This document shows positions 23,079 to 27,848 of a stretch of 64,000 nt of DNA, in pieces; within the stretch, counting starts at the first letter, position 1; each line of letters starts with the position of its first letter. The translations under genes were made by a program, and so were the position numbers. The stretch covers positions 64,001 through 128,000 of the forward strand of contig OY970065.1 in assembly GCA_963705295.1 (NCBI GenBank). The letters are read 5' to 3'. The notes beneath the pieces were generated by a model. That model saw nothing but the letters and a program-made list of their open reading frames with translations, made no database searches and was not told the DNA's origin. This DNA is from Parachlamydiales bacterium (GTDB taxonomy: Bacteria > Chlamydiota > Chlamydiia > Chlamydiales > Rhabdochlamydiaceae).

Positions 23079-23309
23079 ATGAGAATTGATCCAGTTAATT
23101 TTTTTCCAAAGTTCCCAGAGGACAAGTCTACAGAAAAACTAACCGATCCTTATGATTTGAATATTGAATTTGATGTTATAGATTCTGAAACTTTGGTCGA
23201 TCAGAAAGACGTACCTCCTACTGGTAACTCATGTGTTGCTGGTTCTACCTGTTGGTGTACAACTGGAGGAAACACATGCAGCACGACTTGTGTTGGTGGA
23301 AAATGTTAA
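23079..23309 (+). CDS. lanA: Class I lanthipeptide precursor (FxLD-like leader)
   Basis: GAGGT RBS; acidic leader containing DPYDLNI; core TGNSCVAGSTCWCTTGGNTCSTTCVGGKC with 6 Cys and 10 Ser/Thr; adjacent to lanC and lanB. Confidence 0.9.
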   Translation: MRIDPVNFFPKFPEDKSTEKLTDPYDLNIEFDVIDSETLVDQKDVPPTGNSCVAGSTCWCTTGGNTCSTTCVGGKC

Positions 23310-23355
23310 ACAATCTTTCGATAGAATAGATATATTAGGATATTAGAGATGCGAT

Positions 23356-24741: not shown

Positions 24742-27700
24742 TTACACCAAAGAACGATAGACTCTTTTTGTCTGCTCCATTTTTTTTAGTAAGAATTCCA
24801 ACTCTTTCGAAAGATGATTTTTTCTTTCTTTTTCAAGATCTTAAAACCCGACTTTTACCATTTTACCTAAATGAACCAGTTCTTCAAGAAGCTCTTTTAA
24901 TTGCTTCTCCCTCTCTTTCCCAAGCTTTGGAAGGTAGGGGGAGATTAGATGAGAAAAAAACAAAACAAATCACCTCCAGTCTTCTTAAATATATATCTAG
25001 AATGGCAACACGTGCTACACCCTTTGGTCTTTTTTCTTCTGTGTCGATTGGCTCATGGGGAAAAACATTCGGCGATCTGGATCTAACTAAGATTCGTAAA
25101 AGAGCACGGCCGGATATGGAGTGGTTATTTAAAATTTCGGAGCTTATTTATTCTGACAATTCAATATCAGAATTAATTTTAATTAAAAGACATCCACTTG
25201 TTTTTTTTAGTAAAGATCGTATTATTCTGAATTACAGATTGAAGAAAGACGCAGAGGATAACATCTCGAGTGTTTCTATAGGTTCTAGTTCTCTAATGGA
25301 CAAAATATTTGAATTTACTGAAACTCCAATTCCTTTTGTGGAACTAAATAATAAGTTAATGGAATATTTTCCATCATTAGATAAAAATAAAACAATAAAT
25401 GTTATTAAAACACTTATAGAGCAACAATTTTTATGCCCTGCCTTACTCCAGTCTTTAGTAACGGATCAGGCCTTTCTTGATTTTCTCATGAATATTCCAT
25501 CAATTTGTTCAATTCTTCCTGATTTGCAGAAAATTTCTTCTTTAATTCAAGAATATAACACTCAGCTTGTTGGAGAAAGTGGCTCTCTTCTTAAAAATCT
25601 TCAAGAAGAACTGGGAAAAATCAAACCATCAAATACACCGCTTCAAGTGGATTGTGTATATTCGGGCAACAAAATCACTATTTCCCCATCGATAGCTAAA
25701 GAGCTGGAAGAATCAGCAGAAATACTTTGGAGGATATCATCTTTTTCTGATTTTTCTTTTCTTAAGTCTTATCATCAGAGATTTCTAGAGAAATACGGGA
25801 TTAATAGACTCGTACCTCTGTTACAGCTTTTGGATGCTAATGAAGGTCTGGGGATTCCCAATGAATATAACCCGTCTTACCCTTACCAGAATATAGATGT
25901 GAACCCTAAGGCATGGCAATGGAGACAGTTGCTAAATAACAAGCTTTTTTCTTGTATAAGAGATGGGAAAAAAGAAATTATACTGACCGAAGCCGATCTC
26001 GAAGGAAAAATAGATTTCACCAAAGCCCTTCCTTCAATTGAACTTTACTGCGAAGTGCTTGCCGATAGTGCTGAAAATGTGGATAAAGGAGAATTCCTTC
26101 TACACCTTCCCTTTAGCGGTTGGCAAGCTGGTGCTAGTTTTGGCAGATTTGCGGATATACTGGAAAACCCTTCCAAAAAAGCTTTAGAAAGCCTTCTCCG
26201 CAAAGAAGAAGATCTTGATATTAATTGTTTATTTGCAGATGTCTCATTTTTCCCATCATCACCCAGATTATGCAACGTTACAATGCATCCTAGACTAAGA
26301 CGTTACACGATGGACATTGGTTTTGCTAAGGAAAACAATGGAACTATTAAGATACAAGATGTTTATGTAGGTGCAAAATTTAATCGTCTTTATCTTACTT
26401 TAAAAAATATCAATAAAGAACTCATTATTACTGCAAATAATCTCCTTCGTTCTGACTTAGCCCCCACACCTGTCAGATTTTTACGTGATGTGTCAAAAAT
26501 GAAATATCAAATGCTGTATTCTTTTTCCTGGCCTGCTTTAGAAGAAGCTGTCTTCTTGCCACGAGTTAAATATAAGAGAAGTGTTTTTTTTGCAGCCCGT
26601 TGGAAATTAATTCCTGCATTAGAAAAGATAAACCCAAAGGAAAAAGAAGACCAAATAAAGCTTAAGTTTCTTGACTGGGCAAAAAAATGGGAAATTCCTC
26701 GCTATGTCTATATTTATGAATTAGACCAAGGTATGTTATTAGATTTAACACACGCAGCCCATTTAAATGAAATCTGCTCTCAAATAAAGAAAGGCAAAAC
26801 CCTAATATTAATAGAAAAATTAAACCAGGAAAATGGTGATTGGATAAAAAGTCAAAGAGGAACCCATTGCTGTGAATTTATTTTTCCCCTGCTTAAAAAT
26901 CCCAAATACAGTTTACCCGAAGAAATAGAGTTTCCTCAGCCAGACTCTGAAATTAAAACAGAAGATCGGAGGAAACTCCCGGGAAGTGAATGGCTCTACG
27001 TCAAATTTTATTTAGAATGGAAGCGAGAAGATAAATTTTTAGCTAATCATTTATTACAATTTATAATGCCATTCATACAAAATAAAGTAATTAAAAAGTG
27101 GTTTTTTGTTAGATATAATGATGAAAATGGAGATCATCTGAGAGTAAGGTTTTTATTGTCTGAGTATCTTCATACAGATTTTCTTTCTCCTTTCCATAAA
27201 TGGACAACTTCCCTCTTCGAAAAACAGGTAATTCATGATTTACATTTCTGTACTTATGAAAAAGAAATTGAAAGATATGGGGGAATAAATGTAATTGAAG
27301 AAGCAGAAAACTTTTTTTGCGCTGATTCTAATACAGCACTTTCTTTTATTCTAGCTTCTTTATATAAAAAACACACCCTTCCTAGCTATGTGATCGCAGC
27401 TCTAAGTATCATTGAACTCTTAAAAAGATTTGGTTTAGGTATAAATGATCAAGTTTCCTTATTTAATAATTTTAATCTGGATACAACCCAATTAAAAGGT
27501 TACCGATTATGGAAATCCGAGCTTCTTTCTTTAGTGTCAGCCATATTCGATCATTCGAACCCTAATTCAGAAAGCTTAGGACCTTTGGAAATTATATTAG
27601 AAGCTTGTAACCAAAGGTTGAATGCTCAAAGAGCATATTTGGAAAAAATAATCACATTGCAAAAAGAGCAAAAGCTGTCTGCTTCTGTAGAACAGATCTA

Positions 27701-27848
27701 CGATAACCTTATTCACATGCATTGCAATAGGGTGATGGGGTTTAACACCAAGCTAGAACAAAAAGCGCGGCTTTATGCTGCTGCATCCTTAAATGCTCTT
27801 TTGAATAAAGAAAAATTACCGAGAGAAAATAATGCAGTTCTTGTTTAG
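24738..27848 (+). CDS. lanB: Full-length lanthipeptide dehydratase LanB (glutamylation and elimination domains)
   Basis: RMATRATPFGLFS, FLEKYG, GASFGRF, FLPRV; C-terminal WLYVKFY, WFFVRY, HLRVRF, YEKEIERYGG, HMHCNR. ATGA overlap with the lanC stop. Confidence 0.95.
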   Translation: MITPKNDRLFLSAPFFLVRIPTLSKDDFFFLFQDLKTRLLPFYLNEPVLQEALLIASPSLSQALEGRGRLDEKKTKQITSSLLKYISRMATRATPFGLFSSVSIGSWGKTFGDLDLTKIRKRARPDMEWLFKISELIYSDNSISELILIKRHPLVFFSKDRIILNYRLKKDAEDNISSVSIGSSSLMDKIFEFTETPIPFVELNNKLMEYFPSLDKNKTINVIKTLIEQQFLCPALLQSLVTDQAFLDFLMNIPSICSILPDLQKISSLIQEYNTQLVGESGSLLKNLQEELGKIKPSNTPLQVDCVYSGNKITISPSIAKELEESAEILWRISSFSDFSFLKSYHQRFLEKYGINRLVPLLQLLDANEGLGIPNEYNPSYPYQNIDVNPKAWQWRQLLNNKLFSCIRDGKKEIILTEADLEGKIDFTKALPSIELYCEVLADSAENVDKGEFLLHLPFSGWQAGASFGRFADILENPSKKALESLLRKEEDLDINCLFADVSFFPSSPRLCNVTMHPRLRRYTMDIGFAKENNGTIKIQDVYVGAKFNRLYLTLKNINKELIITANNLLRSDLAPTPVRFLRDVSKMKYQMLYSFSWPALEEAVFLPRVKYKRSVFFAARWKLIPALEKINPKEKEDQIKLKFLDWAKKWEIPRYVYIYELDQGMLLDLTHAAHLNEICSQIKKGKTLILIEKLNQENGDWIKSQRGTHCCEFIFPLLKNPKYSLPEEIEFPQPDSEIKTEDRRKLPGSEWLYVKFYLEWKREDKFLANHLLQFIMPFIQNKVIKKWFFVRYNDENGDHLRVRFLLSEYLHTDFLSPFHKWTTSLFEKQVIHDLHFCTYEKEIERYGGINVIEEAENFFCADSNTALSFILASLYKKHTLPSYVIAALSIIELLKRFGLGINDQVSLFNNFNLDTTQLKGYRLWKSELLSLVSAIFDHSNPNSESLGPLEIILEACNQRLNAQRAYLEKIITLQKEQKLSASVEQIYDNLIHMHCNRVMGFNTKLEQKARLYAAASLNALLNKEKLPRENNAVLV

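Follow-up and report, generated by a model that had tools for sequence, protein, structure and literature searches.

The 64,000-nucleotide stretch analyzed here (positions 64,001 to 128,000 of contig OY970065.1 from a Parachlamydiales bacterium, called the window below) carries at positions 23079-27848 three co-directional genes, lanA-lanC-lanB, which we interpret, with a probability of roughly 85%, as an intact class I lanthipeptide biosynthetic cluster. Its peptide would be made by the textbook mechanism of the class, with leader removal and export most likely provided in trans. An earlier note on this DNA, made from the letters and without database searches, had proposed an intact cluster free of frameshifts, and this is borne out by the listing of open reading frames (ORFs), their translations, and domain matches that extend over the full profiles. 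The three genes are the following:

23079..23309, plus strand: lanA, a precursor of 76 amino acids (aa), recognized by its ORF and translation, ribosome-binding site, and leader motif
23356..24741, plus strand: lanC, a predicted zinc-dependent lanthionine cyclase of 461 aa with a GTG start (PF05147, LANC_like, 2e-60)
24738..27848, plus strand: lanB, a predicted full-length tRNA-Glu-dependent dehydratase of 1036 aa (PF04738 and PF14028)

The whole cluster takes up 4.8 kb, without any frameshift or stop interrupting the stretch from lanA to lanB. The end of lanA lies 46 bp before the start of lanC on the same strand. In the raw sequence the ATG of lanB (24738-24740) overlaps the TGA of lanC (24739-24741), i.e., the two genes are coupled by an ATGA, as the earlier note had read; an alternative TTG start of lanB lies upstream of this ATG, at 24684. 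The note had also found the cluster more AT-rich than its flanks. Its GC content is indeed low, at 0.349 compared with a genome value of 0.438; of the 4.77-kb segments of the 2.13-Mb genome (94.7% complete by marker genes), just 0.05% have a GC content as low or lower. A six-frame search of the whole genome for a leader box followed by a Cys/Ser/Thr-rich tail, written as a regular expression, returned four matches, all at this cluster or at a second lan locus described below. Scans for promoters and terminators at the locus gave sites no more numerous than in shuffled sequence, and Rfam had no match in window positions 22000-31000.

The precursor gene is well delimited. A Shine-Dalgarno sequence, GAGG, lies 6 nt before its ATG at 23079, and an in-frame TAA at 23073-23075 bars any upstream extension. 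The encoded peptide, MRIDPVNFFPKFPEDKSTEKLTDPYDLNIEFDVIDSETLVDQKDVPPTGNSCVAGSTCWCTTGGNTCSTTCVGGKC, has an acidic leader of about 48 aa (pI 4.06) with the sequence DPYDLNIE, in which YDLN occupies residues 25-28. Cleavage probably takes place before G49, because a VP..GN stretch is conserved between this LanA and the precursor of another chlamydial cluster (L031). The predicted core would then be GNSCVAGSTCWCTTGGNTCSTTCVGGKC, with 28 aa, 6 Cys, and 9 Ser/Thr, and nine dehydrations would bring its mass to 2494.92 Da. Hence, the YDLN variant of the leader motif and the core with 6 Cys and 10 Ser/Thr that had been noticed earlier both stand, the count of Ser/Thr being 10 from V45 (VPPT) and 9 from G49.

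Searches for homologues of LanA found no candidate by word index and no true homologue in an exhaustive phmmer search of 1.84 billion representatives; the sole match of the latter (P0121) is a 556-aa translated tandem repeat and was rejected as spurious. LanA is a new precursor and, since it has no detectable homologue, its product would be new, as had been proposed. Similarities to other chlamydial precursors appear when neighboring genes are compared. The LanB nearest to ours in the tree (L035 of genome G213, SH-aLRT 89) adjoins a precursor with an identical DPYDLN box. The YDLN box is rare, and its presence in this sister cluster also suggests that leader and enzyme evolved together. The core pattern TC.C...TCGGGC is common to the window LanA and to the precursors beside L031 and L036, and the D..DL box is invariant in the precursor alignment.

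Both enzymes look intact in sequence. LanC carries the WCYG and CHG motifs named in the earlier note, along with its PF05147 domain, and its best solved relatives are PDB 8byk (1e-56) and NisC (2g02, 2e-25). Aligned to 2g02, in which the chain numbering is shifted by 6, it keeps seven of the seven residues checked: C284, C330, and H331, which we take to be the zinc site of NisC, and H212, D141, R280, and Y285, which we take to be catalytic. LanB had been described as full length with both domains, and the near-complete coverage of the two profiles agrees with this: the glutamylation domain matches positions 2-648 of the 649 of PF04738 (Lant_dehydr_N, 5e-141) and the elimination domain positions 1-250 of the 255 of PF14028 (Lant_dehydr_C, 2e-48). 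Its best solved relatives are PDB 9g04 (3e-109) and NisB (4wd9, 1.5e-54). The phmmer alignment to 4wd9 shows that it keeps all nine NisB residues checked, R83, R87, T89, D121, D299, and R464, presumably those of glutamylation, and R786, R826, and H961, presumably those of elimination. In both alignments the positions were counted by hand from the printed chain numbering. NCBIfam adds to the cluster enzymes only a generic elimination-domain model, TIGR03891, whose match to LanB reflects the shared elimination domain. A single tRNA-Glu(UUC) is encoded in the genome. We rejected the possibility of a thiopeptide, or of another LanB-dependent peptide synthesized on the ribosome and modified after translation (RiPP), since the locus has a LanC and a Pfam scan of the neighboring genes gave neither a YcaO nor an extra elimination-domain protein.

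The most plausible scheme for the production of the peptide is therefore the one known from the class, which we give here as read from the genes. LanB would bind LanA via the acidic DPYDLN leader, glutamylate Ser and Thr of the core with Glu-tRNA(Glu), and then eliminate the glutamate to leave dehydro-residues. The zinc site of LanC would add the six Cys thiols to these dehydro-residues, which could produce as many as six thioether rings. Core dehydration and ring formation are predicted functions. No dedicated gene can be assigned to leader removal and export, which would most likely occur in trans. The candidates are, in order of falling support, general proteases, a neighboring M4 metallopeptidase, and the RiPP-type ATP-binding cassette (ABC) exporter of a lasso-peptide cluster (see below).

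The substrate of the two enzymes must also be considered, since the genome encodes a further set of such genes:

C1:702710-709371 (L006 3711-10372), lanC and lanB on the minus strand, precursors on the plus strand: second class I lan locus (PF04738, PF05147)

There, lanC (378 aa) is followed by lanB (883 aa) at C1:705.6-709.4 kb. Four precursor-like units, with the boxes FDLDLE, LDLDLE, YDLDLE, and FDLDIE, are convergent with lanCB and are followed by a gene encoding a TPR protein of 771 aa. One open frame (L006 4077-4358) spans two of the units with no stop separating them. This precursor passes NF038155, the model of the FDLD family of class I lanthipeptides (curated cut-off, 20 bits), at 26 bits, and is one of the 4 of 23 other chlamydial candidate precursors that do so (with L027 12010-12258 and those of L028 and L034). 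One could then imagine that LanB and LanC of the window do not, or not only, serve the adjacent LanA, which fails NF038155, and that they modify these four precursors with similar boxes or make dehydro-peptides that are not lanthipeptides. We find this highly improbable: the second locus has a LanC and a LanB of its own, from a different subclade, while the window lanA is immediately upstream of lanC on the same strand, shares its rare box with the sister cluster L035, and encodes six core Cys that fit the substrate of a cyclase.

The genomic context indicates how the cluster came to its present place. It sits on a low-GC, strain-specific island at the breakpoint of an inversion, directly after cdsN-cdsO-cdsP. 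The elements that define this context are the following:

22894..23058, no strand: palindromic dispersed repeat of 165 bp, similar to a miniature inverted-repeat transposable element (BLASTN copies, hairpin fold)
27862..28260, minus strand: orf132, 132 aa, part of the island, 13 bp from lanB and convergent with it, located downstream of the M4 gene
28274..29497, minus strand: M4 (thermolysin-family) zinc metallopeptidase, 407 aa (PF02868, 2e-44; PF01447, 8e-12)
38168-41407: cdsC, secretin
41422-42972: pkn5-like kinase
43163-44215: cdsQ-like gene (FliN_C)

Upstream of the cluster lie the type III secretion genes CdsD and cdsN, a YscO-like gene, and a gene encoding 322 aa. In three genomes of the same genus, the latter is followed directly, and on the same strand, by homologues of the cdsQ-like gene, the kinase gene, and cdsC, and there are no lan genes between cdsP and cdsQ-pkn5-cdsC. 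Relative to these genomes, window positions 30860-44215 form an inversion of about 13.4 kb. It parts cdsN-cdsO-cdsP from cdsQ, the pkn5-like kinase, and cdsC, which are collinear in the relatives, and therefore the type III secretion gene cluster is split in this strain. The breakpoint holds the region from 22.8 to 30.8 kb, with lanA, lanC, lanB, orf132, the M4 peptidase gene, and orf267; homologues of orf267 are found elsewhere in relatives. No repeat at the breakpoints accounts for them. The gap between the kinase and cdsQ-like genes contains a separate palindrome (43033-43157), whose 53-nt arms show 89% complementarity. The island was most likely acquired from another chlamydia. That the DNA belongs to a chlamydial genome had been stated before, and the flanking CdsD, cdsN, YscO-like, cdsQ, and cdsC genes agree with it, as do the closest LanB homologues.

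The repeat at 22894-23058 ends 21 bp before the start codon of lanA, so the promoter of this gene must lie either within the repeat or upstream of it. It is a near-perfect palindrome that folds into a single hairpin (-108 kcal/mol, z = -15), and BLASTN finds 37 copies that measure at least 140 bp across the genome, along with 31 shorter pieces. Further copies lie 64 bp before lanC of the second locus (C1:709435-709597) and between the precursor and the B gene of the lasso-peptide cluster (C1:1095124-1095287). We considered the occurrence of the repeat beside all three RiPP loci as a sign of regulation and dropped the idea: most of the 37 copies are at the 3' ends of genes, and this may explain two of the three cases.

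Among environmental chlamydiae, the LanB/LanC lineage has a wide but patchy distribution. Of the 401 sampled genomes of the phylum, 41 have a PF04738 match, this one included, and all 41 belong to the same order. By group, it occurs in 11 of 89 genomes in one family (f1), 12 of 46 in f6, 6 of 69 in f7, 2 of 23 in f3, and only 1 of 13 in the same genus, where the sole carrier has lanB at another site and with 36% identity. We compared the window with 21 loci, 20 from other genomes (the top of the score table) plus the second locus of this genome. The order lanC-lanB, often with overlapping genes, is the rule among them. Their LanB are 33-41% and their main LanC 37-46% identical to those of the window, with lower values for extra LanC-like genes. 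A candidate precursor with a box of the F/Y-D-L-D type accompanies 17 of the 21 loci; L042 is doubtful and L029, L030, and L038 have none. Accessory genes, counted within 4.5 kb of these loci, are the following:

ABC exporter: 2 of 21 loci (L032, L034)
LanD-type flavoprotein between lanC and lanB: 4 of 21 loci (L028, L029, L030, L034)
Second LanC-like gene: 6 of 21 loci
AAA, NB-ARC, or TPR proteins: 5 of 21 loci
Gene of a peptidase family, placed as in an operon: L045 (S41), and L028 and L030 (PF00144)

The other flanking genes are mostly housekeeping genes, and no protease family recurs beside the 21 loci. In lacking LanT, LanP, and immunity genes, the cluster is typical of its lineage, and this genome is no special case. 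The minimal composition of the cluster, which the earlier note had pointed out, is thus the norm in chlamydiae.

The best matches of LanB in a collection of 5.8 billion proteins are from chlamydial metagenome genomes, with 33-43% identity, followed by Bacillales with about 30%, and the closest homologues are labeled Chlamydiae, Parachlamydiaceae, and Simkaniaceae. A quick maximum-likelihood tree separates the 28 chlamydial rows from the 13 Bacillales rows (SH-aLRT 100%). Within the chlamydial part the families intermix, and the two LanB of this genome fall in different subclades.

Some of the compared loci have traits of their own. The precursors at L028 11948-12151 (genome G085) and L034 13941-14141 (G156) pass TIGR03731, the gallidermin/nisin family model (cut-off, 29.3 bits), at 53.2 and 48.1 bits, respectively; reaching this cut-off implies N-terminal rings that bind lipid II. 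The window LanA has no match to this model. In L028, the PF00144 gene, encoding a serine hydrolase, overlaps the end of lanB. Cluster L026 of G066, a genome of the same genus, and cluster L031 of G052, from another family, both adjoin nth (HhH-GPD) and mnmE, which hints at an old shared insertion site. Finally, a 188-aa Nif11-domain protein is encoded beside LanB at L042 6961-7527 (G236), where there is no LanC within 20 kb. This protein is possibly a LanB substrate of another kind.

How would the peptide leave the cell? The canonical operon includes LanT, LanP, and LanI/LanFEG in the cluster, and this is not the arrangement found here. There are no matches in the genome to LanT/PCAT (PF03412, C39 peptidase) or to LanP (PF00082, S8 peptidase), and Pfam gives no ABC exporter with a membrane domain in the window. 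Pfam scans of the neighborhood within the window gave no immunity gene, although no search aimed at LanI/LanFEG was made. The earlier note's claim that the cluster lacks an exporter, a leader peptidase, and an immunity gene therefore holds for LanT/PCAT, LanP, and an exporter in the window, but it had overlooked the M4 gene two genes downstream of lanB. Outside the window, the genome has three exporters of the ABC_membrane type. The ABC exporter at C1:1090706-1092523 is 59% and 49% identical to the exporters that adjoin lan genes in L032 and L034, respectively, the L032 counterpart lying next to lanC in another chlamydia. Exporters of this type occur in 14 of the 400 scored genomes of the phylum, and half of these (7 of 14) have lanB, compared with 41 of 401 overall. 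Here, the exporter is part of another RiPP locus:

C1:1090703-1095500 (L049 7704-12500), minus strand: apparent lasso-peptide cluster with a precursor, Transglut_core3 (McjB-like), Asn_synthase (McjC-like), and ABC exporter (McjD-like) genes

The candidate lasso precursor has 50 aa, with ...SLTQ followed by GNPGKFIEDNPTRPRPNAC; Thr is at position -2 and the core begins with Gly and has Glu8/Asp9. The earlier note had concluded that export and maturation follow a non-canonical route, and had offered action on the host or on co-infecting microbes as a possibility. The conclusion on the route rests on absence, and a second lan locus, a RiPP-type exporter, and an M4 peptidase on the island are present. 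It had conceded that a lanT/lanP locus elsewhere would remove the argument; the exporter of the lasso-peptide cluster supplies this in part, and there is no counterpart for lanP. Since the genome offers candidates in trans, we regard non-canonical export as a possibility and not as a finding.

The M4 metallopeptidase is the candidate for leader removal that lies closest to the cluster. It could be a dedicated leader peptidase (with orf132) that replaces LanP and is anchored by its C terminus in the inner membrane. Its gene shares the island with the cluster and is convergent with lanB. It is also rare, being present in 6 of the 91 genomes of the family, this one included, and in none of the 5 same-genus genomes searched; three relatives of the same genus lack the gene at the syntenic site. 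The GC content of orf132 and the M4 gene is also low (0.393, 2.6th percentile). The protein has an intact HELGH at residue 182, no N-terminal hydrophobic or signal-like stretch, and one C-terminal hydrophobic segment at about residues 380-400. For orf132 there was no match in Pfam or NCBIfam, in five related genomes, or in the atlas. Elsewhere, however, the M4 gene does not go with lan genes. Genome G099 has an M4 homologue, 50% identical over the matched region, and no lanB, and a BLAST comparison of its surroundings with this genome revealed neither synteny nor RiPP genes. Genome G220 carries M4 and lanB on separate contigs, and G213, which has the closest cluster, lacks M4. The zincin near L035 was considered as an M4 counterpart and rejected, since it is not homologous, and a contig scan for further M4 relatives matched 43 patterns, none of which was confirmed. 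To our knowledge, no M4 enzyme acts as a lanthipeptide leader peptidase. Because M4 is not linked to lan genes elsewhere, we judge the role of dedicated leader peptidase quite unlikely; the enzyme is a candidate by position only, and its link to the cluster is weak.

These results must be weighed against several points that speak against a functional lanthipeptide cluster. LanA matched no family in Pfam or NCBIfam at E <= 1, including NF038155, so its assignment rests on its position, motif, and composition. The repeat 21 bp before lanA may have severed the operon from its promoter. No exporter, immunity gene, or dedicated peptidase can be assigned, and the producer cell has two membranes to cross. 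The exporter that resembles those of other lan clusters belongs to a lasso-peptide cluster both here and in four genomes of the same genus, where it lies 0.5-1.8 kb from a Transglut_core3 gene. The LanB tree does not prove a single chlamydial origin, because Bacillales are the only outgroup. Some of these points would also be expected if the cluster were a recently acquired passenger, silent or decaying, with genes that are intact and either unexpressed or without an exported product. Such a passenger would fit the extremely foreign composition and the strain-specific island, with lanB in a single other-site carrier among the same-genus genomes, as well as the inserted palindrome and the missing accessory genes. 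It would fit less well with 4.8 kb kept open, with the retention of every catalytic residue checked, and with the preservation of the ATGA coupling and the ribosome-binding site. Furthermore, many chlamydial families have kept minimal clusters of this lineage, which argues for their working without dedicated accessory genes. We thus consider the silent passenger unlikely, though it is a possibility to be taken seriously, and retain the interpretation of an intact biosynthetic cluster whose peptide is matured and exported in trans.

A more specific scenario can be drawn from the same data. The cluster could represent an old lineage of the phylum's own that does without LanT and LanP, and in this genome the M4 enzyme, co-acquired and membrane-anchored, could mature the six-Cys peptide, with the latter either leaving through the McjD-type exporter of the lasso-peptide cluster or acting inside the inclusion or the host cell instead of being a secreted antibiotic. 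We see this as very unlikely. If it were true, M4 would be a type of leader peptidase new to lanthipeptides.

The intact biosynthetic cluster may be of interest for several reasons. As far as the literature searched shows, obligate intracellular bacteria have yielded no characterized lanthipeptide; our search on chlamydial lanthipeptides and lantibiotics, whose scope left out bioRxiv supplements, found no characterized product. The cluster could be a convenient entry point for heterologous production because it is compact, intact, and has a precursor unlike any in the databases. The wider picture is possibly more useful than this one locus. Among the sampled chlamydial genomes, about one in ten carries this lineage, in which an adjacent exporter is usually absent, no protease family recurs, the leader box is YDLD, and some clusters have gallidermin-type precursors and LanD. 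This raises the question of how such peptides are released and used, and where, by intracellular bacteria with two membranes.

Most of this wider picture was foreshadowed in 2010 and 2022, when clusters of this kind were already reported from chlamydiae. A LanA-LanC-LanB cluster of Parachlamydia acanthamoebae is described in the passages that Marsh et al. (2010, PMC3091789) devote to it, where acquisition from Firmicutes is suggested. Dharamshi et al. (2022, PMC9666466) list antiSMASH classes "Lanthipeptide-class-i" and "Lassopeptide" in genomes of Parachlamydia, Rhabdochlamydia, Sororchlamydiaceae, and Anoxychlamydiaceae, with an epidermin-like match in a Parachlamydia genome, and propose roles in microbial warfare or host defense; in the parts that concern these clusters, their work is a catalogue without precursor analysis. 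A lanthionine synthetase is mentioned for Algichlamydia in the relevant section of Maire et al. (2024, PMC11317633), whereas the main text of Walker et al. (2020, PMC7268733) does not mention chlamydiae.

Compared with known systems, the cluster shares its core with the nisin system, i.e., a full-length LanB and a separate LanC, whose catalytic and zinc residues are conserved in the window, and a leader box of the F/Y-D/N-L-D/N type. The nisin system also has NisT, NisP, NisI, and NisFEG, whereas no LanT or LanP was found for the window and LanI/LanFEG were not specifically searched. The window precursor also differs in not matching TIGR03731, and its producer, which has two membranes, inhabits host cells. 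Among solved structures, the best matches are those given above, 9g04 for LanB and 8byk for LanC. The best relatives of LanB outside chlamydiae are Bacillales dehydratases, such as the one that its source names PaeB of Paenibacillus polymyxa (P0072), with about 30-32% identity over 97-99% of LanB. They are split from all 28 chlamydial rows with full support, and their precursors and accessory genes are not shared with the window. Closer in kind are the gallidermin-type chlamydial clusters L028 and L034, which have precursors passing TIGR03731 and a PF02441 flavoprotein between lanC and lanB, both lacking in the window, but belong to the same LanB/LanC lineage and have the same lanC-lanB order. 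The nearest published system is that of P. acanthamoebae Hall's coccus (pah_c028o029-031, PMC3091789), for which no characterized product is given in the passages on this cluster. It comes from a different chlamydial family, and the window LanB is 33-43% identical to any other chlamydial LanB found. Yet it belongs to the same phylum and has the same class I gene set in the same order, A-C-B, and in both cases the closest relatives of LanB and LanC outside the phylum, as far as that account goes, are enzymes of Firmicutes.

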